A stretch of DNA of 24,000 bases from Sulfurovum riftiae (GCF_001595645.1 NZ_LNKT01000045.1:69472-93471); one strand, 5' to 3'; positions 4,733-23,766 are shown, numbered from the stretch's first letter. Program-made: numbers and translations. The notes: generated from the letters alone by a model not told the origin.

Positions 4733-4767
4733 GTTGAGCGCTGAGCGTTCAGCGTTCAGTGTTCGGA
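4733..4767 (+). repeat. Heptamer array GTTGAGC/GCTGAGC/GTTCAGC/GTTCAGT/GTTCGGA directly after the tatA stop; self-complementary
   Basis: 7-nt periodicity read directly. On the + strand RNA, 4733-4744 pairs with 4749-4760: 12 bp including 3 G.U, with loop GCGU. Confidence 0.8.
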
Positions 4768-9009: not shown

Positions 9010-10203
9010 ATGAAAACAGTAAAAGATATCGATATTGACGGCAAAAGAGTATTTATACGATGTGACTTCAACGTACCAAAAGACGAATTCGGTAACATCA
9101 CCGATGACAGACGTATCCGTTCTGCACTGCAGACGATCCGCTACTGCATTGACAGAGACTGCAAGATCATTCTTGCATCACATTATGAGAGACCGGAACC
9201 GGGCAAGTATGAAGAGAAATACTCTTTGAAACCCGTAGCAAAAAGGCTGCATACCCTTCTGAAGATCAAAAATGAACTCTATATGGCCAATGATGTGGTC
9301 GGTCCGGATGCCAAAGAGAAAGCGGCCAAACTGGAGGCAGGTGACGTTCTGATGCTTGAGAACCTTCGTTATGAAGCAGGGGAGACCAGCAATGATGAGG
9401 CATTTGCCAAAGAGTTGGCTTCCTTTGCCGATGTCTATATCAATGACGCTTTCGGTGCTTGCCATAGAAAGCATGCTTCTATCTATGCTATTGCAAAACA
9501 GTTCGACAGAGACCATAAAGCGGCAGGTTTTCTGATGGCAAAAGAAGTTAACTTCTTCAGCAAAGTACTTGAAGAACCTATCAGACCCTTTGTGGCGGTG
9601 GTAGGCGGATCGAAAGTATCGGGTAAACTTCAGGCTTTGACCAACCTCCTCAATAAAGTGGACAAAGTCATTATCGGCGGCGGTATGGCATTTACTTTTC
9701 TCAAGGCACAGGGCTATGAGATCGGCAAATCGCTGGTGGAGGATGACCTGATCGACGAAGCAAGGGACATCATGGAAAAAGCGCACTCTCTGGGTGTGAA
9801 ATTCTACCTCCCTGTCGATTTTGTCGTGGCACCGGAATTTTCAGAGAATACAGCAGTCAAATACCTTCCTTCCCAGGAGATCCCTCATGACTGGATGGGG
9901 CTCGATACGGGACCGGCCTCTTCAAGACTTTTCCGTGAAGTGCTCAACGATGCACAGACGATCATCTGGAACGGGCCAATGGGCGTGTACGAGATGGACA
10001 AGTTCTCCAAAGGGAGTATCATGATGTCTCACCATATCGCGGAGACACATGCAACGACCATTGTTGGCGGTGGTGATACTGCTGATGTGGCACAAAGAGC
10101 CGGGGATGTGGATGAAATGACCTTTGTCAGTACCGGAGGCGGTGCAAGCCTCAAGCTGATAGAGGGAATCAAACTTCCCGGTCTTGAAGCATTAGAAAAG
10201 TGA
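9010..10203 (+). CDS. pgk: Phosphoglycerate kinase
   Basis: RxDFNVP, GGAKVSxK-like (GGSKVSGK), GGGDT and STGGGA motifs. The stop codon TGA forms the first 3 nt of the heptamer array. Confidence 0.96.
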
Positions 10204-10228
10204 ACAGAGTACAGTGAACAATGAACAA
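10199..10228 (+). repeat. Cassette 1, 5' arm: tandem heptamers TGAACAG/AGTACAG/TGAACAA/TGAACAA
   Basis: 7-nt periodicity read directly. 10209-10223 (GTACAGTGAACAATG) is the perfect reverse complement of 10582-10596. The arm contains the pgk stop and the four-helix-bundle ATG. Confidence 0.9.
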
Positions 10229-10580
10229 TAATATTTTGAGTGAAAAAAGTTTTTCTTTTGCCCTTAGAATCATTAAATTGTCATCGTTCCTAACTGATAA
10301 AAAAAGAGAGTATACTCTTTCAAAACAGATTTTACGAAGTGGTACTTCAATTGGTGCTTTGGTGCGTGAAGCACAATATGCACAGTCCAAATCGGATTTT
10401 ATTCATAAATTAAGTATTGCACTTAAAGAAGCCAATGAAACAGAATATTGGTTGCAGTTATTGGTAGAGTCTGAATATATAAGTCGTAAGATGTTTGAAA
10501 GTATTGAACCAGAAATAAAAGAGTTATTGAGATTATTGATCTCAAGTATAAAAACCACAAAACAAAATATAAATACATAA
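10221..10580 (+). CDS. Four-helix-bundle protein (23S rRNA intervening-sequence protein family, TIGR02436/PF05635, Avd-like), copy 1
   Basis: Family-typical KSFSFALRIIKL...LSKQILRSGTSIGALVREAQYAQSKSDFIHKLSIALKEANETEYWLQLL. About 119 aa. Much more AT-rich than pgk and tpiA. Confidence 0.9.
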   Translation: MNNNILSEKSFSFALRIIKLSSFLTDKKREYTLSKQILRSGTSIGALVREAQYAQSKSDFIHKLSIALKEANETEYWLQLLVESEYISRKMFESIEPEIKELLRLLISSIKTTKQNINT

Positions 10581-10581
10581 G

Positions 10582-10614
10582 CATTGTTCACTGTACATTG
10601 TACATTGTTCACTG
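10582..10614 (+). repeat. Cassette 1, 3' arm: tandem heptamers CATTGTT/CACTGTA/CATTGTA/CATTGTT/CACTG
   Basis: 7-nt periodicity. Inverted complement of the 5' arm. Starts 2 nt after the ORF stop and ends just before the tpiA RBS (AAAGGA). Confidence 0.9.
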
Positions 10615-11316: not shown

Positions 11317-11327
11317 GAAATTGGAGT

Positions 11328-11363
11328 CGGGACTTCAGTCCCGTTAACGCGACTGAAGTCGCG
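11328..11363. terminator. Twin hairpins between convergent tpiA and nusA
   Basis: CGGGAC-TTCA-GTCCCG (11328-11343) and CGCGAC-TGAA-GTCGCG (11348-11363), arranged around a central GTTAAC. No clean U-tract on either strand, so terminator function is uncertain. Confidence 0.5.
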
Positions 11364-11379
11364 ATTCCTGGAGGAGGTT

Positions 11380-13010: not shown

Positions 13011-13037
13011 CTTACACTCATTAAACACTTTATCTTC

Positions 13038-13067
13038 TACCCCTACCCACATTACCCACTACCCACT
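13038..13067 (+). repeat. Approximately heptameric tract TACCCC/TACCCACAT/TACCCAC/TACCCAC just upstream of the miaB ATG
   Basis: Read directly. Opposite polarity (CTAC vs GTAG) to the 12983-13010 tract and only partly complementary to it. It occupies the place where an SD would be expected. Confidence 0.6.
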
Positions 13068-13072
13068 ATAAA

Positions 13073-14368
13073 ATGAAGAAACTATTTATCGAAACCCTCG
13101 GATGCGCAATGAATGTCCGTGACAGTGAACATATGATCGCCGAACTGAACCGGAAAGAACCTTACGAACTCACGCAGAATCTTGACGAAGCCGACCTTAT
13201 CATCATCAACACCTGTTCCGTCAGGGAAAAACCGGTCGCCAAACTCTTCTCAGAGATCGGTGTCTTCAACAAGCACAAAAAATCCGGAGCCAAGATAGGT
13301 GTTGCAGGGTGTACTGCGAGCCACCTGGGGAAAGATATTATCAAGAGAGCACCGTCGGTGGATTTTGTCATCGGTGCAAGGAATGTCTCAAAGATCACAC
13401 AGGTGGTCGACAAAAAACATGCCGTTGAAATAGATACGGATTATGATGAGAGTACCTATGCGTTCGGTGAGTACAGGACCAACCCTTTCAAAGCGATGGT
13501 GAATATCTCCATCGGCTGTGACAAATCCTGTACCTTCTGTATCGTTCCTGCGACCAGAGGCGATGAGATTTCCATTCCCAGTGACCTTTTGGTACAGGAG
13601 ATTAGCAAAGCGGTCGCATCGGGTGCCAGAGAGGTGATGCTTCTGGGGCAGAATGTCAATAATTACGGCAGACGTTTCGGTGCCGCAGAAGAGCAGATCG
13701 ATTTTACGGGACTGCTTCGCAAGATCTCGAAGATAGAAGGACTGGAGCGTATCAGGTTCACCTCACCTCATCCGCTGCACATGGATGATGCATTCATCGA
13801 AGAGTTCGCCTCCAATCCGAAGATATGCAAGCAGATACATGTGCCGCTTCAGAGCGGCTCGACCTCTCTGCTCAAAGCCATGAAGCGCGGCTATACCAAA
13901 GAGAATTTTCTCAACCGTTGTGAGAAGATACGCACGCTCTGTCCCGAAGCAACGATCTCTACCGATATCATTGTGGGATTTCCGGGAGAGCGCGAAGAAG
14001 ATTTTGCAGATACGATGGATGTCCTTGAAAAGGTGCGTTTTGAACAGCTTTTTTCTTTCAAGTACTCTCCCAGACCCCATACGGAAGCGGCAGAATTCGA
14101 AGAGCAGATCGATGATAAAGTTGCCGGGGAACGCCTGACAAGATTGCAGGCAAGGCATACGGAGATCCTCGATGAGATTATGGATGCACAGCTTGGGAAG
14201 ATACATGAGGTCTATTTCGACGAACTCAAATCCAACGGCAGGATTTCCGGACGAAGCGATGACGGAAAACTGGTCTTTGTCGAAGGAAGTGAAGAGCTGC
14301 TCGGGAAGATCGTGGATGTCAAGATCACAAAAACGTCACGCGGTGCACTAGACGGTGTAGTGGTATAG
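13073..14368 (+). CDS. miaB: tRNA-2-methylthio-N6-dimethylallyladenosine synthase (radical SAM methylthiotransferase)
   Basis: UPF0004 N-terminal domain ([20 protein letters not shown]), radical SAM CxxxCxxC (CDKSCTFC), C-terminal TRAM domain. Confidence 0.93.
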
Positions 14369-15900: not shown

Positions 15901-15948
15901 CCCTTCGACAGGCTCAGGGACCGAGGAAAAAAATCGTTTATCCCGTAG

Positions 15949-15975
15949 GGTGGGCTTCAGCCCACCTTTCTTTAC
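15949..15975 (+). terminator. Hairpin plus T-rich tail downstream of xerH (first hairpin of a double-hairpin element)
   Basis: GGTGGGC-TTCA-GCCCACC followed by TTTCTTTAC. Confidence 0.55.
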
Positions 15976-16036
15976 AATTCGGATTTGAAATAATAATCCA
16001 TTTGTCTATAGGTTTTTTGGTGGGCTAAAGCCCACC

Positions 16037-17020
16037 CTACGGAAGTATTGTTAGGTCAATATTTTCCCGGTACAAATACGCTCTGATCTTGGGAGGAATC
16101 CTTTTGACCCTGCACTTTTCTTTGAATTCTTTTGGCATATCTGTTGTAACGTAGGGGGCAACATAAAGAAGGTCATCCTCTATTTCAATTGCCCACTCCC
16201 CACCAATGACCAGACTTTTTTCTCTTGCTATTTCTTCTCTCTGAGCAGAGGAAAGAAGATATCCCAGTTTTTTCAGTGTAAGGTCAGCAGCTTTTACTTT
16301 TGAACTAGTCTGCCTGAGTTTGATGATACGCAGTTGTTTTTCAGCGAAAAGCGTTTCGAAACCGGATTCGAGCAGTTTTTTATCGTCTCTCAGATAGGAA
16401 AAACTTCGTTTGATCCCCTCTCTGAATTGGGAAATGAGCGGATCGGAAAACGCTTTTCTAAAACGGTTACGTTCATATTTTTCATTGCTGTTGCTGTCGT
16501 CTATGAAATAGGGATAGTTATGTATTTCTAAATAATCAAGCAGTTCTTCCTTGGAATATTCAAGAAGAGGTCGAATCAAAGTATATCCATCCCTTTTACT
16601 TACTGGTTCAAGCCCAATGAGTTCTGAAAGCCCGGCTCCTTTGGTCAGGCGCATAAAAAGCCATTCAAGCTGGTCGTTCAGTTGATGTGCGGTCAGAAGC
16701 GTATCGTAGCCATGTTCTGCAATAAGGGTTTCAAAAAAATCGTAGCGGAATTTTCGTGCGTTTGCTTCAAAATGAGTTTTGAATACTGGTGCCTTGGTGG
16801 TGTAACACTTTTTGCCATATTTTTTCGCCAATGCTTTGGCATGCTCCTCTTCCTTGTTACTTTCCGGTCGTGTTCCGTAATTCACCAACGCGATATCGAA
16901 AGGGATATTGTTTTCCAAAAGAAGGAAAAAGAGGGCGGAAGAGTCTATTCCTGCTGAGAAGGCGAGCAGATTCTTCTTTTGAAGTAGGAAGTAGGAAGTA
17001 GGAAGTAGCAATTGAGACAT
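16037..17020 (-). CDS. tilS: tRNA(Ile)-lysidine synthetase
   Basis: PP-loop SAGIDSS (SGGxDS type) and a TilS-like central region. The first ~13 codons (MSQLLLPTSYFLL) are encoded by cassette/repeat sequence. The ATG overlaps the upstream four-helix-bundle stop (TAATG). Confidence 0.88.
   Translation of the reverse strand: MSQLLLPTSYFLLQKKNLLAFSAGIDSSALFFLLLENNIPFDIALVNYGTRPESNKEEEHAKALAKKYGKKCYTTKAPVFKTHFEANARKFRYDFFETLIAEHGYDTLLTAHQLNDQLEWLFMRLTKGAGLSELIGLEPVSKRDGYTLIRPLLEYSKEELLDYLEIHNYPYFIDDSNSNEKYERNRFRKAFSDPLISQFREGIKRSFSYLRDDKKLLESGFETLFAEKQLRIIKLRQTSSKVKAADLTLKKLGYLLSSAQREEIAREKSLVIGGEWAIEIEDDLLYVAPYVTTDMPKEFKEKCRVKRIPPKIRAYLYRENIDLTILP
16981..17008. repeat. Cassette 2 arm: (GAAGTAG)x4, perfect, lying inside tilS codons 4-13
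   Basis: Four identical tandem heptamers read directly. Reverse complement of 17373-17396 (24 nt, perfect). Confidence 0.95.
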
Positions 17021-17373
17021 TATATAGATTCTTTGATTTTTTTTGTACTTGAAATAAGAAGTTTTAGAAGCTCATCTATTTCAGGAGCAATACTATTGTA
17101 CATTTTCTCATTGATATAATTAGATTCATTGAGTATTAAGAGCCAATATTCTGTTTCATTTGCTTCTTTAAGTGCGATAGTAAGCTTGTGTAGAAAATCA
17201 GCTGTTGATTGTGCATATTGTGCTTCTCTTATGAGTGCTCCAATGGATGTTCCACTTCGTAAAATTTGTTTTGAAAGTATATGTTCTTTGTGATTTTTCT
17301 GTAAATACTGGGAAAGCTTGACAATACGTAAGGCAAAAGAGAAACTTTTGTCGCGTAAGAGATCTTTTTTCAT
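17020..17373 (-). CDS. Four-helix-bundle protein (23S rRNA IVS protein / Avd-like family), copy 2
   Basis: KSFSFALRIVKL...LSKQILRSGTSIGALIREAQYAQSTADFLHKLTIALKEANETEYWLLIL. 117 aa and AT-rich. Lies 2 nt after the rimO stop and overlaps the tilS start by 1 nt. Confidence 0.9.
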   Translation of the reverse strand: MKKDLLRDKSFSFALRIVKLSQYLQKNHKEHILSKQILRSGTSIGALIREAQYAQSTADFLHKLTIALKEANETEYWLLILNESNYINEKMYNSIAPEIDELLKLLISSTKKIKESI

Positions 17374-17399
17374 TCCTACTTCCTACTTCCTACTTCCTC
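17373..17399. repeat. Cassette 2 arm: (TTCCTAC)x3 plus one degenerate unit, forming the rimO C-terminus and stop and reaching the first base of the four-helix-bundle start codon
   Basis: Read directly. Encodes the RimO tail ..SEEVGSRK* on the minus strand. Perfect 24-nt complement of 16981-17008. Confidence 0.95.
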
Positions 17400-18704
17400 A
17401 CTGATGAGTGTTGCCAGCAATTGGCTTCCTACCAGTTCTGTCACCTTTGCTTCATACACTTTTCCATATTCGACCGGGAGGTCGGAAGTGTCGTTGATGA
17501 GGACCTCACCATCAATATCTACTGCCCACTGAAGCGGCCTGGCAGAGAGAAGGTACTCATGCTCGTCGCTTTCGCCGTCGATGACAAGTTCAATGGTCTT
17601 GCTTACCATTTTTTCCAACGATCTTAATGTTGAGGCTTCAGCGATCTCCCCGAGTATCTCTGCTCTCTCATCGATGATCTCCTGGGGGATCTGCTGCATT
17701 GCATAGGCTGTTGTGGTTTCCTCATTGGAATAATGGAAAGTATTGAATCTGTCGAAGCCGAAGTTTTCCATGAAGGTACAGAGTTTCTCAAAGCTCTCCT
17801 GTGTCTCTCCCGGATGCCCTGCAATGACAGAGGTTCTCAGGAAAGCATTGGGTTTGCTTTTCATGTATTCAAGCAGCTCGATGGTTTTCTGCTCGCCAAA
17901 ACCACGCTTCATGATCTTGAGTACAGCATCGTCGATGTGCTGGATAGGCATATCATAGTAGGTCTGGAAGATCTTTGAGTCGGCAATGGCATCGATGAGT
18001 GCAAAGGTGGTCGTGCTTGGATAAAGGTACAGAATACGTGCCGAGCGTACACCTTCAATGGATTCAACAGCATTGATGAGGTCGATGAGTCCGTCTTTGA
18101 GACCCATATCTCTTCCGTAACTCGAGGAGTCCTGTGAGATGAAGGAGAAGTCATAATAGCCTTGTGCAGCCAGCATAGTTACTTCTTTTTCAATGGAAGA
18201 GAGCGAGCGTGAATGCAGTTTTCCTTTGAAGCTCGGAATGGCACAGAAGGAGCAGGCCTGGTTACACCCCTCGGCGATCTTGATATAGGCATGGTAATTC
18301 GAACCGGTAATGACCCTGCCGGAAGTTTCTGTTGCCAGGTAGACTTCCGGGGAGAAGGTACTCTGTTTTGAAGCAATGAGTTCATCGATCTTCTCATAGT
18401 CACCCACACCGGTAAAGATATCGATCTCCGGCATATCCTGCTGAAGCTCCTCTTTGTAACGTTCTGAAAGACAGCCGCTCATGACAAGGATGGACTCTTC
18501 TTTTCGCTGGTTATGCAGTTCCAGTACTGTGTTGATACTCTCTTCTTTTGCCGCATCGATGAAGCCGCAGGTATTGACGATAATGACATCGGCTTCTGTA
18601 TTGTCATCGGTGATCTCATACTCTTTGAGACGGCCAAGCATCACTTCGCTGTCAACAAGGTTTTTGGTACAGCCAAGGCTTACCAGATGTAGTTTTTTAG
18701 ACAT
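17376..18704 (-). CDS. rimO: Ribosomal protein S12 methylthiotransferase
   Basis: MSKKLHLVSLGCTKNLVDSE N-terminus, radical SAM CNQACSFC, TRAM domain. I prefer ATG 18704 to the ORF-track start at 18779. Confidence 0.92.
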   Translation of the reverse strand: MSKKLHLVSLGCTKNLVDSEVMLGRLKEYEITDDNTEADVIIVNTCGFIDAAKEESINTVLELHNQRKEESILVMSGCLSERYKEELQQDMPEIDIFTGVGDYEKIDELIASKQSTFSPEVYLATETSGRVITGSNYHAYIKIAEGCNQACSFCAIPSFKGKLHSRSLSSIEKEVTMLAAQGYYDFSFISQDSSSYGRDMGLKDGLIDLINAVESIEGVRSARILYLYPSTTTFALIDAIADSKIFQTYYDMPIQHIDDAVLKIMKRGFGEQKTIELLEYMKSKPNAFLRTSVIAGHPGETQESFEKLCTFMENFGFDRFNTFHYSNEETTTAYAMQQIPQEIIDERAEILGEIAEASTLRSLEKMVSKTIELVIDGESDEHEYLLSARPLQWAVDIDGEVLINDTSDLPVEYGKVYEAKVTELVGSQLLATLISEEVGSRK

Positions 18705-18734
18705 AGTTTTTCTTTTAGTTATAAAATTTTTGAG

Positions 18735-18743
18735 ATTATAGCA
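18735..18743 (-). promoter_or_regulatory. Extended -10 (TGCTATAAT) candidate promoter for rimO
   Basis: The minus-strand sequence TGCTATAAT lies about 31 nt upstream of the rimO ATG. Confidence 0.5.
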
Positions 18744-18843
18744 TATTCTTGTAGATAGAAAAATCGAAGGATCCGTCATTCTCGGCTTGACTGGGAATCT
18801 ATAGATATCGTTCTAAATAATAAGGTTTGAATTTTTTTAAGGG

Positions 18844-20702: not shown

Positions 20703-20778
20703 TGGTGGCGCCGGACGGAATCGAACCGCCGACACATGGATTTTCAATCCATTGCTCTACCAACTGAGCTACGGAGCC
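20703..20778 (-). tRNA. tRNA-Phe (anticodon GAA)
   Basis: The reverse complement reads GGCTCCGTAGCTCAGTTGGTAGAGCAATGGATTGAAAATCCATGTGTCGGCGGTTCGATTCCGTCCGGCGCCACCA. Cloverleaf with D arm GCTC/GAGC, anticodon loop TTGAAAA, T-loop TTCGATT and encoded CCA. One U4:C69 acceptor mismatch. Confidence 0.93.
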
Positions 20779-20921: not shown

Positions 20922-22166
20922 TTAAAGTTGTTTTACCAGGTTCATAAAGATCTCTCCTCTTTGGGCGTAATTCTTGAACTGGTCAAAACTTGCAGCGGCG
21001 GGGGAGAGGAGGCCTACATCATCGGCCTGCATATTTTTGTCAATGGCATGTACGGCGTTTTCAAGTGTGTTTGATTCGACGGCAGGGATATTGTATTCCC
21101 TGGCAAGTGAAAGAAGTCTTTCGCTGTTCGCCCCGATCGTATATAATGTAAGTGAAACCTGGGACATGGCTTCAAAATAGGGGTGCAGGTCAACACCCTT
21201 GTCATCCCCCCCTGCAATGAGGTGGATGTGATGGTCGTCATAGGCCTTTATGGCCTGGACCGCGGCATCCACATTGGTTGCTTTGGAGTCATTCACCCAG
21301 AGTCTTCCTTGTGCATCGTGGAACTCCTGCTGCCTGTTGAGATCCATTTTGAAGGTATTGATACAGGCATAGTCCACTTCGTCGAAAAGGACACGGGTCA
21401 CTGCCAGTGCCAGCATGGCATCTTCCAGAAAGGCCGCTTTGAAGTTGATGAGGGCCGGGTCAATGTTGAAATAGTCCGAGAGGAAATCTGTGGAGTCGTA
21501 CTCGACGACAAAAGCATCTGTTTCAGGCAGGTTCAGCCCTTTGGGGACCAGTGCCAGCTCCCCCTCTTTCATGGTAAGCAGCGGACGGAGCTTGTCTGCC
21601 TCATAGGCCTCTTCCGTACCGTGCCAATCAAGATGATCCGGTGTGATGGGAAGCAGGAGATAAATATCCGGTGAGGCGGTCTTTGTATAGTGAAGGGCAT
21701 AGGAACTTGACTCGAGTACCCAGATGGGGGCTTCTGCATCCATTGCCGCCAAGGGTACGCCGATGTTTCCCCCGCTTACCGCACCCCTGTGTTCGAGCAG
21801 GTGGGTAAGCATCTGGGTGGTGGTGGTCTTGCCATTGGTGCCACTGATCCAAACTGTGAATGGCATATGCCGTTCAAGTGAAGAGTGAAGAGTGAAGAGT
21901 GAAGAATGATGTGGTGCCAGAATGTAGTCATATTCGCTCAAAAGATGTTTGGCTTTCTGAATGAGCGGATGGTTTGGCTTGAGGCTTGGTGTAGTGACCT
22001 CAAGTTCACTTTTGTCCGGATCGAACAGCGAAGAGGGCAGTATCTTGTTGCCTTCCTCATCTGTATAGGGTTCTTTGACATTGTCATCATAGAAGATACA
22101 TCCCCCTCCCAGCTTTTTGGCAATGGCTCTAGTGGTCAGTCCGTATCCGAATAGTGTGGGCTTCAT
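20922..22166 (-). CDS. murD: UDP-N-acetylmuramoylalanine--D-glutamate ligase
   Basis: Epsilon-type N-terminus MKPTLFGYGLTTRAIAKKL, P-loop GTNGKTTTT, Mur ligase central and C-terminal domains (NDSKATN). Carries an in-frame heptamer-array insertion just before the P-loop. Confidence 0.93.
   Translation of the reverse strand: MKPTLFGYGLTTRAIAKKLGGGCIFYDDNVKEPYTDEEGNKILPSSLFDPDKSELEVTTPSLKPNHPLIQKAKHLLSEYDYILAPHHSSLFTLHSSLERHMPFTVWISGTNGKTTTTQMLTHLLEHRGAVSGGNIGVPLAAMDAEAPIWVLESSSYALHYTKTASPDIYLLLPITPDHLDWHGTEEAYEADKLRPLLTMKEGELALVPKGLNLPETDAFVVEYDSTDFLSDYFNIDPALINFKAAFLEDAMLALAVTRVLFDEVDYACINTFKMDLNRQQEFHDAQGRLWVNDSKATNVDAAVQAIKAYDDHHIHLIAGGDDKGVDLHPYFEAMSQVSLTLYTIGANSERLLSLAREYNIPAVESNTLENAVHAIDKNMQADDVGLLSPAAASFDQFKNYAQRGEIFMNLVKQL
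21879..21907. repeat. Intragenic heptamer array (TGAAGAG)x3 plus TGAAGAA inside murD
   Basis: Read directly. Same sequence and orientation as the 22187-22216 arm. Translated on the minus strand as HHSSLFTLHSSLE. Confidence 0.9.
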
Positions 22167-22186
22167 GAAAAACTCCGCTTTTCAAA

Positions 22187-22216
22187 TGAAGAGTGAAGAG
22201 TGAAGAGTGAAGAGTG
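22187..22216. repeat. Cassette 3 arm: (TGAAGAG)x4 between the four-helix-bundle stop and the murD RBS
   Basis: Four perfect tandem heptamers. Reverse complement of 22657-22677. Confidence 0.95.
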
Positions 22217-22250
22217 TTGGTTTGCATTGCTGTGCAATGCTTCTATTATA

Positions 22251-22610
22251 TCAGGATGCATTGTTGATGTTCTCTTTTGCTGTTTTGATACTTGATGCAA
22301 GTATTTTTAAAAGGTGTTCTATATCGTCAAGGAGACTAAGTGCAAGTTTTTCCTGAAGATAATTACAGTCCTTTAAAAGCCGTAGCCAGTATTTTGTTTC
22401 ATTTGCTTCTTTAAGTGAAATAGATAGTTTATTGATAAAGTCAAGTTTTGATTGTGCATACTTGCCTTCTGCGATCAAGGCACCAATCGCCGTTCCTGAA
22501 CGTAAAAGCTGTTTGCTAAGAATAAATTCTTTTTTCTCTTGCTGTAAATACTCATTACATTTTACAATGCGAATGGAAAAATTGTAACTCTTCTCTTCTA
22601 GTATACTCAT
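22251..22610 (-). CDS. Four-helix-bundle protein (23S rRNA IVS protein / Avd-like family), copy 3
   Basis: KSYNFSIRIVKC...LSKQLLRSGTAIGALIAEGKYAQSKLDFINKLSISLKEANETKYWLRLL. 119 aa, AT-rich, and the most diverged of the three copies. Confidence 0.88.
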   Translation of the reverse strand: MSILEEKSYNFSIRIVKCNEYLQQEKKEFILSKQLLRSGTAIGALIAEGKYAQSKLDFINKLSISLKEANETKYWLRLLKDCNYLQEKLALSLLDDIEHLLKILASSIKTAKENINNAS

Positions 22611-22656
22611 GGTTCTTTCTCAAAAGATGGAAGCTTTCTGAAAGAAAGCATACCAC

Positions 22657-22688
22657 AACTCTTCACTCTTCACTCTTAATTCTTCACT
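22657..22688. repeat. Cassette 3 arm: ACTCTTC/ACTCTTC/ACTCTTA/ATTCTTC/ACTG between the mraY stop and the four-helix-bundle gene
   Basis: 7-nt periodicity. 22658-22677 is a perfect 20-nt complement of the (GAAGAGT)n arm. Confidence 0.9.
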
Positions 22689-22707
22689 GCTCAAAGTAAA
22701 GCTTTGA

Positions 22708-23766
22708 TCATCTAATTTTAAGTGTGATGAGTGCGAGTACATTGGTGATGAATGCGATCATCCAGAAGCGGATGATGATCTTGTTCTCGGGCCACTCTTT
22801 GAGTTCGAAGTGGTGGTGGATGGGTGCCATGAGGAAAACACGTTTCTTGCGCAGTTTGTAGCTTCCGACCTGCAGAATGACAGAAACAGTTTCCATGACG
22901 AAGATGAAACCGATGAGAATGAGCAGGACCTCACTTTTGCCAAGGATGGCAAGGTATGCCAGAAAACCACCGATAGAGAGGCTTCCCGTATCTCCCATGA
23001 AGATCTCCGCCGGATAACAGTTGTACCATAAGAATCCCATAAGTGCACCGGCAAGTGCAGTAGTAAGGACCAGGACCTCTCCCACACCTTTGATGTTGGG
23101 CATCAGGAGGTACTCGCTGATGATTGCATGTCCTGTAATGTAGACGATGACGCCAAGAGAGACGAGAGAGATGATGGAAGGTACCGTTGCCAGGCCATCC
23201 AGGCCATCGGTAAGGTTCACGGCATTGGTGACAGCAAGGAACATGACGATCCAAAAGGGGATGGCAAAATACCCCATATCAAAAAGTGGTGTCTTGACAA
23301 AAGGCACATAGAATTCAGTGGGGAAACCGGAGTAGACAAGCAGGCCGGTGGAGATAAGGGCAACAACGACCTGCAGGCCCATTTTTCCGCGGGGAGTAAG
23401 CCCCTCAAGGTTGTCACCTGAGAGAATTTTCCCAATGTCATCCTTAAAGCCTACCAGGCCAAAACCTACAAGAGTAATAAGCCCACCCCAGACATAGATG
23501 TTGGCCAGGTCGATGACGATGAATGCGGCGATAAGTGTTGCCGTAATGAAAACCGCTCCGCCCATAGTAGGGGTCTTTCCTTTGCCTGCATGTGCTGCGA
23601 CATATTTGCTGATGGGCTGGTTGGCATTTTTGGAAATGGCCCAGGCCAGATACTTTGGCATGAGTATCAAGACAAGCAGAAAAGCAAGCAGAAAAGCGAG
23701 TCCGGCACGCACGGAGATGTATCCGAAAAGGTTCATGTGGAGGAGATGGTTCAGTTCATATAGCAT
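22708..23766 (-). CDS. mraY: Phospho-N-acetylmuramoyl-pentapeptide transferase
   Basis: Ten-TM protein with [13 protein letters not shown], the conserved [11 protein letters not shown] motif (here [11 protein letters not shown]), and APIHHHFE. Confidence 0.95.

Follow-up and report, generated by a model that had tools for sequence, protein, structure and literature searches.

An in-frame heptamer array in the inter-domain linker of MurD in Sulfurovum riftiae and its relation to PF05635 cassettes

Heptamer array inside murD

Analysis of a 24,000-nt stretch of DNA from Sulfurovum riftiae (the window) showed a tandem array of a 7-nt unit in frame inside murD, the gene for UDP-N-acetylmuramoyl-L-alanine--D-glutamate ligase, in the linker that joins the N-terminal domain of the enzyme to its central domain. 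A cassette with a PF05635 open reading frame (ORF), bounded by arrays of the same heptamer, lies upstream between mraY and murD (Table 1). On the plus strand, read directly, the murD array is TGAAGAG three times followed by TGAAGAA; Tandem Repeats Finder called it at 21877-21909, with a period of 7, 4.7 copies and 96% matches. A first-pass annotation of this DNA had given the same sequence at 21879-21907, of which only the end did not stand, since the fourth unit stops one base earlier, at 21906. In the sense of the murD mRNA the array is TTCTTCA(CTCTTCA)3 and is translated within ...SEYDYILAPHHSSLFTLHSSLERHMPFTVWISGTNGKTT. Its location in frame was borne out: the 414-aa ORF at 20922..22166 on the minus strand is intact, carries Mur ligase domains and encodes a protein 100% identical to S. 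riftiae MurD (P0001). Counted from the ATG, the array runs from 259 to 287 nt downstream; approximately 280 nt had been noted before. Seven residues (RHMPFTV) separate it from WISGTNGK, which it had been said to precede immediately.

The triple occurrence of the heptamer array exceeds chance: a 14-mer, allowing up to two mismatches, was found nine times in 24 kb, every time in one of three arrays (21879-21906, 22187-22214 and, inverted, 22659-22686), against an expected 0.42, and none of 100 shuffles reached nine. The murD array and the 3' arm of the cassette form a direct repeat of 39 nt with 92% identity (21873-21911 vs. 22181-22219), which reaches into both flanks. Earlier statements that the array shares its sequence and orientation with the cassette arm at 22187-22216, and that two direct repeats flank the 5' end of murD, therefore hold, as does the existence of an inverted partner at 22657-22688, for which inverted-repeat matches were found.

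In the mRNA, the array is followed by a short junction palindrome with counterparts in relatives (TGAAAGGC/GCCTTTCA, TGAAAGGCA/TGCCTTTCA, TGAAAGGAA/TTCCTTTCA and TAAAAGGC/GCCTTTTA). Across relatives, 95% of the cells were paired and compensatory changes occurred in two of eight pairs; support for this palindrome was modest, the observed value being reached by 21 of 500 shuffles. Its TTGAAA...TTTCA outline is shared with the hairpin at the murD ribosome-binding site (RBS).

Table 1. Features of the mraY-murD region of the S. riftiae window, in window coordinates.
Feature	Position	Strand	Remarks
murD (UDP-N-acetylmuramoyl-L-alanine--D-glutamate ligase)	20922..22166	-	414 aa, intact; Mur ligase M and C domains
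MurD inter-domain linker codons, Y81-V105 (YILAPHHSSLFTLHSSLERHMPFTV)	21852..21926	-	25 aa vs. basal 10 aa
Junction palindrome TGAACGGCAT / ATGCCATTCA	21857..21876	-	Directly after array; 3' half = M-P-F-T codons
In-frame heptamer array	21879..21906	-	Translated HSSLFTLHSS within ...APHHSSLFTLHSSLER...; probably a single right (3'-type) arm left from a hairpin element without an ORF
Small hairpin GAAAAGC-GGA-GTTTTTC with murD RBS	22167..22183	-	Between cassette 3' arm and murD ATG
3' arm of cassette 3, (CTCTTCA)x4 on mRNA	22187..22216	-	Direct-repeat partner of murD array
Small hairpin GCATTGC-aca-GCAATGC (mRNA sense), just inside 3' arm	22224..22240	-	
Cassette ORF, PF05635 (23S rRNA-intervening sequence protein / S23p four-helix-bundle family)	22251..22610	-	119 aa; E=7e-27
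Small hairpin GCTTTCT-ttc-AGAAAGC (mRNA sense), just inside 5' arm	22623..22639	-	Part of 60-nt extended stem
5' arm of cassette 3, mRNA TGAAGAA TTAAGAG TGAAGAG TGAAGAG	22657..22688	-	Complementary to both downstream arrays; carries stop codons
mraY, upstream operon gene	22708..23766	-	ORF and domain match

Linker inserts across Sulfurovum

The 120 closest MurD proteins and 88 loci with DNA were collected (the S. riftiae window being entered as WIN), and linker length, taken as the residues from SEYD up to the W of WISGTNGK, was surveyed in the 84 Sulfurovum-type murD loci. The linker measured 10 aa in 46 of these and 11-51 aa in the remaining 38, and it exceeded 10 aa in 87 of the 120 closest proteins. 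The basal 10-aa form reads YFxxEMPFSI, and 10 aa is also the length in Sulfurimonas. With 25 aa, the S. riftiae linker is 15 aa (45 bases) longer than the basal form; the first-pass annotation had rightly proposed extra sequence created by repeat insertion, but its estimate of ~10-12 aa was too low. Basal and insert-bearing alleles are interspersed in the MurD tree. The linker is a genus-wide hot spot of insertion and turnover in the Sulfurovum lineage.

The same array occupies the same codon position in L007 (ENA) and in L008, L010 and L011 (JGI), as well as in the S. riftiae protein at NCBI (P0001). Assemblers can be misled by short tandem repeats, and copying of the cassette arm into murD during assembly or sequencing had to be considered; recovery of the array at an identical codon position in independent projects, with the reading frame intact, leaves such an artefact with practically no probability. 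Between S. riftiae and the relatives sharing both array and site, murD nucleotide identity is just 66-78%, at odds with a recent insertion private to this genome. Locus L008 carries the array with an mraY-murD gap of 27 nt, no cassette and no 5' arm, and together with the linker inserts in the murD of other relatives it upholds the proposal that arrays exist without the ORF and enter coding sequence. It is also a cassette-free relative with the same peptide, encoded by the same repetitive DNA rather than by the non-repetitive DNA that would have spoken against an insertion. Clean heptamer arrays deep within long ORFs were found only in murD in the 427 kb scanned, a sample biased toward murD neighbourhoods. 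Among database proteins, a 45-aa query with the translated cassette end gave no candidate with three words in common.

Nature of the inserted sequences

The extra linker residues were found to be translated hairpin repeats, namely inverted heptamer arrays with the small hairpin and junction that also mark the 3' end of the cassette, internally deleted cassettes or repetitive extragenic palindromic (REP)-like palindromes. A complete linker element consists, in order, of a left heptamer arm, a small hairpin (GCATTGCAAAGCAATGC), the sequence AAAC, a right arm of ~4 units and a short palindrome running into the P-F-T codons. The left arm is exemplified by (GGGAGCA)x4, translated GSREQGAGS, which is combined with a right arm in the linkers of L053, L032 and L041, while the right-arm units across linkers were CTCTTCA, CTCCTCA, TTCCTCA, CTCCTAC, CTACCCA and CCATCCA. 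In L007, L017, L035, L053, L049 and L014, the small-hairpin module found just inside the cassette 3' arm lies ahead of the linker array and is translated EALQSNAN or ASQSDA. In S. riftiae, L008 and L011 only the right arm and the junction palindrome are present, the S. riftiae copy having lost its left arm; two-arm versions are kept in the linkers of relatives (L032, L053, L025).

Several linkers resemble cassette termini. Those of L025 and L022 combine the two ends of the type-B cassette, which is their own cassette type (..GAGGAACYGAA.. / ..ATCGGTTACTCATT..), the ORF between these ends being deleted, and the L017 linker, ATAGAAGCATTGCAGAGCAATGCAAACCAACA(CTCCTCA)4, resembles the 3' end of the S. 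riftiae cassette, ATAGAAGCATTGCACAGCAATGCAAACCAACA(CTCTTCA)4, to the point of near identity apart from the heptamers. At the same site of MurD, REP-like palindromes were present in L020, L048, L051 and L070. The mraY-murD gap itself contained a solo 3' arm (TTTCTCA or TTACTCA x4) and the RBS hairpin before murD, without a PF05635 ORF, in L014, L027, L032, L041 and L078, and in L027 the gap held fused remnants of both ends of the ORF. This pattern indicates, at the level of sequence, that cassettes may decay through internal deletion with the 3' arm remaining.

The position of the array, directly upstream of the P-F-T codons, and the resemblance of these native codons (CCTTTCAC) to the unit (CTCTTCAC) would suit a local microsatellite that arose by slippage and expansion of a native seed (CCTTTCA), independently of the cassette. 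We regard this origin as very improbable. The direct repeat with the cassette arm takes in non-repeat flanks, the arrays of relatives are accompanied by the small hairpin and AAAC spacer of the cassette or by a left arm, and unrelated heptamers or REP hairpins occupy the same site in other lineages. Array length was nearly always ~4 units, as in the cassette arms and unlike slipping microsatellites, and the arrays were always in frame.

Two further candidates were discarded. Phase variation was rejected because the copy number is fixed and the gene is essential. An internal translation start at Met101 was considered on account of L021, in which TTGAAAGG..ATG resembles an RBS with a start codon, and was rejected because most relatives have Lys or Leu at this position. 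As a separate observation, a second array site of the TTACTCA/TTTCTCA type lies just after the murD stop codon in L008 (1975-2005), L032 (3786-3816), L039 (1696-1726) and L041 (2431-2461).

Tolerance of the insert by MurD

In the AlphaFold model, residues 84-102 formed a coil between a helix (78-83) and a strand (103-108), with a predicted local distance difference test score (pLDDT) below 50 at residues 87-99; the whole N-terminal domain of MurD was poorly modelled, not the insert alone. Alignment to E. coli MurD started at query residue 104, corresponding to chain residue 106, directly after the insert, in a region that is the junction of domains 1 and 2 in the published E. coli structure. 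The insert is thus predicted, with the weakly modelled N-terminal domain in mind, to occupy a structurally permissive and surface-exposed position, and a disordered loop at the insert was moderately supported.

The arms of 12 cassettes (those of the window and of L001, L007, L009, L010, L011, L017, L018, L025 and L028) were surveyed for stop codons. The 3' arms contained no stop in any frame, except for one formed with flanking bases in L001, while the 5' arms, which bear TGA, TAA or TAG, had stops in two or all three frames. Since a 7-nt period visits every frame, only arrays of the right-arm type can survive inside a gene. In the left arm retained by the L025 linker, the unit whose stop triplet would be in frame has TTA for TGA. 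The 7-nt period also suggests that the cassette may be independent of the frame into which it inserts. The conserved 5' arm unit TTAAGAG, which has an extra TAA, faces CTCTTCA in the 3' arm, where an exact complement would place a stop.

The PF05635 cassette and its operon context

Over 60 nt the two arms of the cassette upstream of murD (cassette 3) are 77% complementary, and the heptamer part reaches 96% over 24 nt. The stem of the RBS hairpin covaries among L009, L011, L017, L025 and L028 (GAAAAAC/GTTTTTC, GAAAATTCC/GGAATTTTC and GATAAACTTC/GAAGTTTATC). In total, the window holds three PF05635 cassettes, at 10195-10614 (plus strand), 16981-17398 (minus strand) and 22181-22693 (minus strand), each located between operon genes and each with a heptamer of its own in inverted arrays (TGAACAA type, GAAGTAG and TGAAGAG, respectively). 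The other two cassette ORFs lie at 10221-10580 (TGAACAA-type arms) and 17020-17373 (GAAGTAG arms), and pairwise identity among the three encoded proteins is only 56-68%. Further heptamer arrays were found at 4733, 10195, 10582, 13037, 16981 and 17373.

At cassette 2, the upstream ORF 17376..18779 takes its final codons and its TAG stop (...ISEEVGSRK*) from the 5' arm (17373-17398). The ATG of the downstream ORF 16037..17020 overlaps the stop of the cassette ORF, and its reading frame runs through the 3' arm (16981-17020). The murD genes of L001 and L007 apparently begin within the cassette and read across its 3' arm.

Two arrays stand alone without a cassette. CTACCCA x4.4 at 13037-13068 lies directly before an ATG at 13073, and the same unit makes up the array in the murD linker of L028. 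At 4733-4766, units of GYTSAGC directly follow the stop of a small ORF, and a member of this family, CTCAGCG, is found in the murD linkers of L018 and L026. REP-like GC-rich palindromes occur at 15943-16042 (CCGTAGGGTGGGCTTCAGCCCACC and an inverted copy) and 11323-11368 (GGAGTCGGGACTTCAGTCCCG...), and relatives of these fill the murD linker or the mraY-murD gap in L020, L048 and L028. A tRNA-Phe (GAA) gene lies downstream of murD at 20703-20778 (minus strand) and was the sole match of the Rfam scan, which detected no known RNA family in the region and no rRNA in the window. Neither the promoter nor the terminator scan yielded a signal over background, and in the stretch from mraY to murD no terminator was found on the coding strand.

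Constancy of the array and its match to the resident cassette

Among S. riftiae, L007, L008, L010 and L011, 26-28 of the 28 nt of the array were identical. At the third codon positions of murD, identity among the same five loci was only 38-50%, with 65% in the closest pair, L008/L011, and over all nucleotides it was 66-83%. The array is therefore constant at the nucleotide level across genomes, and its constancy at synonymous sites cannot be explained by protein-level selection on a variable loop. This bears on the idea that the peptide HSSLFTLHSSLER was selected for a role in MurD, for example in domain spacing or an interaction. In its favour, at least 10 of the 120 closest proteins contain the peptide and the frame is always open, but conservation that covers all synonymous positions, the hypervariable length (10-51 aa) with unrelated peptides and a basal 10-aa form interspersed in the tree, and the low-confidence coil predicted for the segment make an adaptive linker a highly unlikely explanation.

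The heptamers of linker and resident cassette tended to agree, exactly in S. riftiae, L007, L010 and L011 and closely in L001, L009, L017 and L025. A cassette 5' arm paired better with the linker of its own locus than with those of others (mean −28.3 vs. −21.7 kcal/mol; permutation p~0.001, in a test that ignores phylogeny and is uncorrected for it). In L007, the cassette end and the linker share one 21-nt small hairpin (GCATCGCAAAGCGATGCAAAC), from which the orthologous S. riftiae cassette departs at three positions. The sister loci L010 and L001 have MurD sequences with 92% identity after the linker, yet their cassette proteins (intervening-sequence proteins, IVP) are 61% identical and their linker arms differ in step with the cassette type (CTCTTCA vs. 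YTCCTCA); the cassette at the mraY-murD site has apparently been replaced between these close relatives. The first 38 codons of S. riftiae murD share a nucleotide identity of 0.75-0.78 with L008 and L011 vs. 0.66-0.67 with L001, L010 and L007, an order reversed after the linker. This is a weak sign of recombination around the cassette, and a test for a breakpoint placed precisely at the linker gave a mosaic signal that was no more than weak. In L028 and L018 the cassette arms do not match the linker array. Overall, the patterns of matching would fit gene conversion or re-copying between neighbouring arrays.

Predicted pairing with the cassette 5' arm

The first-pass annotation had proposed that the upstream arm could pair with either downstream array, making the murD array a third partner of the cassette stem. 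The capacity to pair was supported by predicted folds: the duplex energy of the 5' arm was −58.1 kcal/mol with the proximal arm and its 30-nt extension, compared to −51.0 kcal/mol with the murD array, and −40.3 and −37.5 kcal/mol, respectively, for the heptamer parts alone. The minimum free energy (MFE) fold of a 921-nt transcript (−228.8 kcal/mol) paired the 5' arm with the murD array and was 4.3 kcal/mol better than the best fold with that array blocked. The linker array was likewise the MFE partner in L007, L011 and L017, and the own 3' arm of the cassette was the partner in L001, L009, L025 and L028. With a transcript ending before the distal array, the 5' arm folded onto the proximal arm. 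A role as third partner was not upheld, as it is not conserved: L008 lacks both the cassette and the 5' arm, and the arms of L028 and L018 are mismatched. A helix between the 5' arm and the murD array is, from these models, physically plausible in this group, and would be neither conserved nor needed for the array to persist.

Such a helix could nevertheless be the reason for which the array is kept, as the alternative 5'-arm partner in an RNA switch or processing device. The helix would span the IVP ORF, the RBS of murD and the codons of the N-domain, and an RNase III cut or a translation block would tune murD relative to mraY. The closeness of the duplex energies, the MFE preference in four loci, the co-variation of linker and cassette heptamers and the conservation of the array at synonymous positions are all in keeping with this, as is the cleavage by RNase III of intervening sequence (IVS) stems and of Correia elements in mRNAs (PMC4990558, PMC10969869). 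Against it stand the retention of the array in L008 without a cassette or a nearby complementary arm, the inability of the L028 and L018 cassette arms to pair with the linker array (−6.8 kcal/mol in L028), and the folding onto the own 3' arm in four loci. The proximal folding of the shorter transcript implies that co-transcriptional folding favours the proximal helix, ribosomes translating murD would unwind the distal one, and 46 of the 84 relatives are without any insert. We consider the device unlikely.

Origin and persistence of the array

The murD array is probably a tolerated in-frame relic carried as a passenger, namely the right arm that survives from a hairpin element without an ORF, whose family includes the termini of the PF05635/S23p cassette upstream. 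That cassette, between mraY and murD, would represent an IVS-like element that lies not in 23S rRNA but in an mRNA operon. Tolerance of the relic may be due to the combination of a poorly ordered linker loop with right-arm heptamers that are free of stops in three frames. Its constancy could result from concerted evolution, through gene conversion with, or re-copying from, the cassette arm 308 nt upstream and other arrays of the pool, or through re-insertion. Competition of the murD array for the 5' arm, and the RNase III-type substrate that such a duplex would make, would then be a by-product and not the reason for which the array exists.

Several points weigh against a passenger relic. Neither a mobility mechanism nor an enzyme was identified, and the borders of the linker and cassette showed no target-site duplication. 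Gene conversion is deduced from sequence patterns only, and co-transfer of the cassette with the 5' end of murD, or selection on pairing, would give similar co-variation. In the type-A group (S. riftiae, L007, L010 and L011) complementarity of the 5' arm to the linker array is nearly equal to that with the cassette's own 3' arm, the equilibrium MFE joins the 5' arm to the linker array in S. riftiae, L007, L011 and L017, and the strong nucleotide conservation could equally reflect selection on RNA or DNA structure. Additionally, the N-terminal domain is weakly modelled by AlphaFold throughout, and heptamer copies were counted within the 24-kb window of the genome. A more far-reaching proposal, which we hold to be quite improbable, is that IVS-like elements extend beyond rRNA, and that Sulfurovum S23p cassettes and their ORF-less derivatives form an active, mRNA-colonising family that enters even the coding sequence of murD. 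Its arms would be frame-proof, the 7-nt period giving stops in all frames of the 5' arm and in no frame of the 3' arm, and the matched arms would form alternative, RNase III-processed helices that couple murD expression to the cassette.

Where S23p-bearing intervening sequences come from and how they move have been unsettled questions since the 1990s. In the present loci, the same kind of element occurs outside rRNA as full cassettes, as decayed cassettes and as hairpins without an ORF that are translated within an essential enzyme. With dozens of natural alleles available at a single site, they constitute a natural experiment on the spread and turnover of such elements, which also bears on whether heptamer stems are RNase III substrates in mRNAs and on the load of foreign sequence that the MurD inter-domain linker tolerates, a matter of relevance as MurD is an antibiotic target. 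For annotation, it is a warning that 'low-complexity' inserts of 10-50 residues in Sulfurovum proteins can be translated repeat DNA.

Comparison with known systems

In the literature, no description was found of heptamer-armed S23p cassettes in operons or of derivatives within murD, and nothing was found on Sulfurovum heptanucleotide repeats or on S23p cassettes outside rRNA. The array was compared with four known systems. Like contingency loci with phase-variable heptanucleotide repeats, it is a tandem 7-nt repeat within coding sequence; unlike these, it has ~4 units fixed across genomes, a change of one unit would frameshift an essential gene, and no on/off variants were seen. With Correia elements/NEMIS (neisserial miniature insertion sequences) and other miniature transposable elements with inverted repeats (MITEs), the cassette shares the organisation of an element with terminal inverted repeats (TIRs) that is co-transcribed with its neighbours and whose long stem would be a potential RNase III substrate (PMC10969869). 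It differs from them in that its arms are heptamer arrays and that no target-site duplication, related transposase or conserved TIR was found; the sole ORF-bearing relative encodes PF05635 and not a transposase.

Rickettsia genes carry in-frame palindromic elements (RPEs), Correia elements in mRNAs are cleaved by RNase III (PMC10969869), and REPs have been found inside genes, with REP families present in Sulfurovum (PMC3733652). The murD array resembles RPEs and intragenic REPs as a hairpin-type repeat in frame in a housekeeping gene, which contributes a peptide at a permissive site of the protein and does not destroy it (PMC10969869, PMC3733652), and the frame is preserved relative to orthologues without the insert (25 vs. 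10 aa). The likeness to RPEs rests on this in-frame carriage, and similarity in sequence is not expected. The S. riftiae copy retains just the 20-nt junction palindrome, relatives have both arms, and the heptamer TGAAGAG forms three arrays within the 24-kb window. Differences from RPEs and REPs are that the arms are arrays of a 7-nt unit that varies by locus, that they are kin to ORF-bearing S23p cassettes, and that a single site in one gene has been reused repeatedly by different elements.

In its anatomy, the cassette resembles S23p IVSs of the type of Leptospira, Coxiella, Brucella and Xanthomonas. In Coxiella, the 23S IVS comprises an S23p ORF, a 28-bp terminal stem and tandem heptamers (GACAGAT x2-3) and is excised by RNase III (PMC4990558). 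The cassette likewise has a PF05635 ORF of ~120 aa, a terminal stem of ~28-30 bp and tandem heptamers in the stem region, and the murD array is a copy of one such arm. Unlike these IVSs, the cassette lies between mraY and murD and the array within coding sequence, neither of them in 23S rRNA, and the murD copy is without a PF05635 ORF and, in S. riftiae, stands without its own partner arm. As it is without the ORF, the murD array is at most a fragment or derivative of an S23p IVS element.

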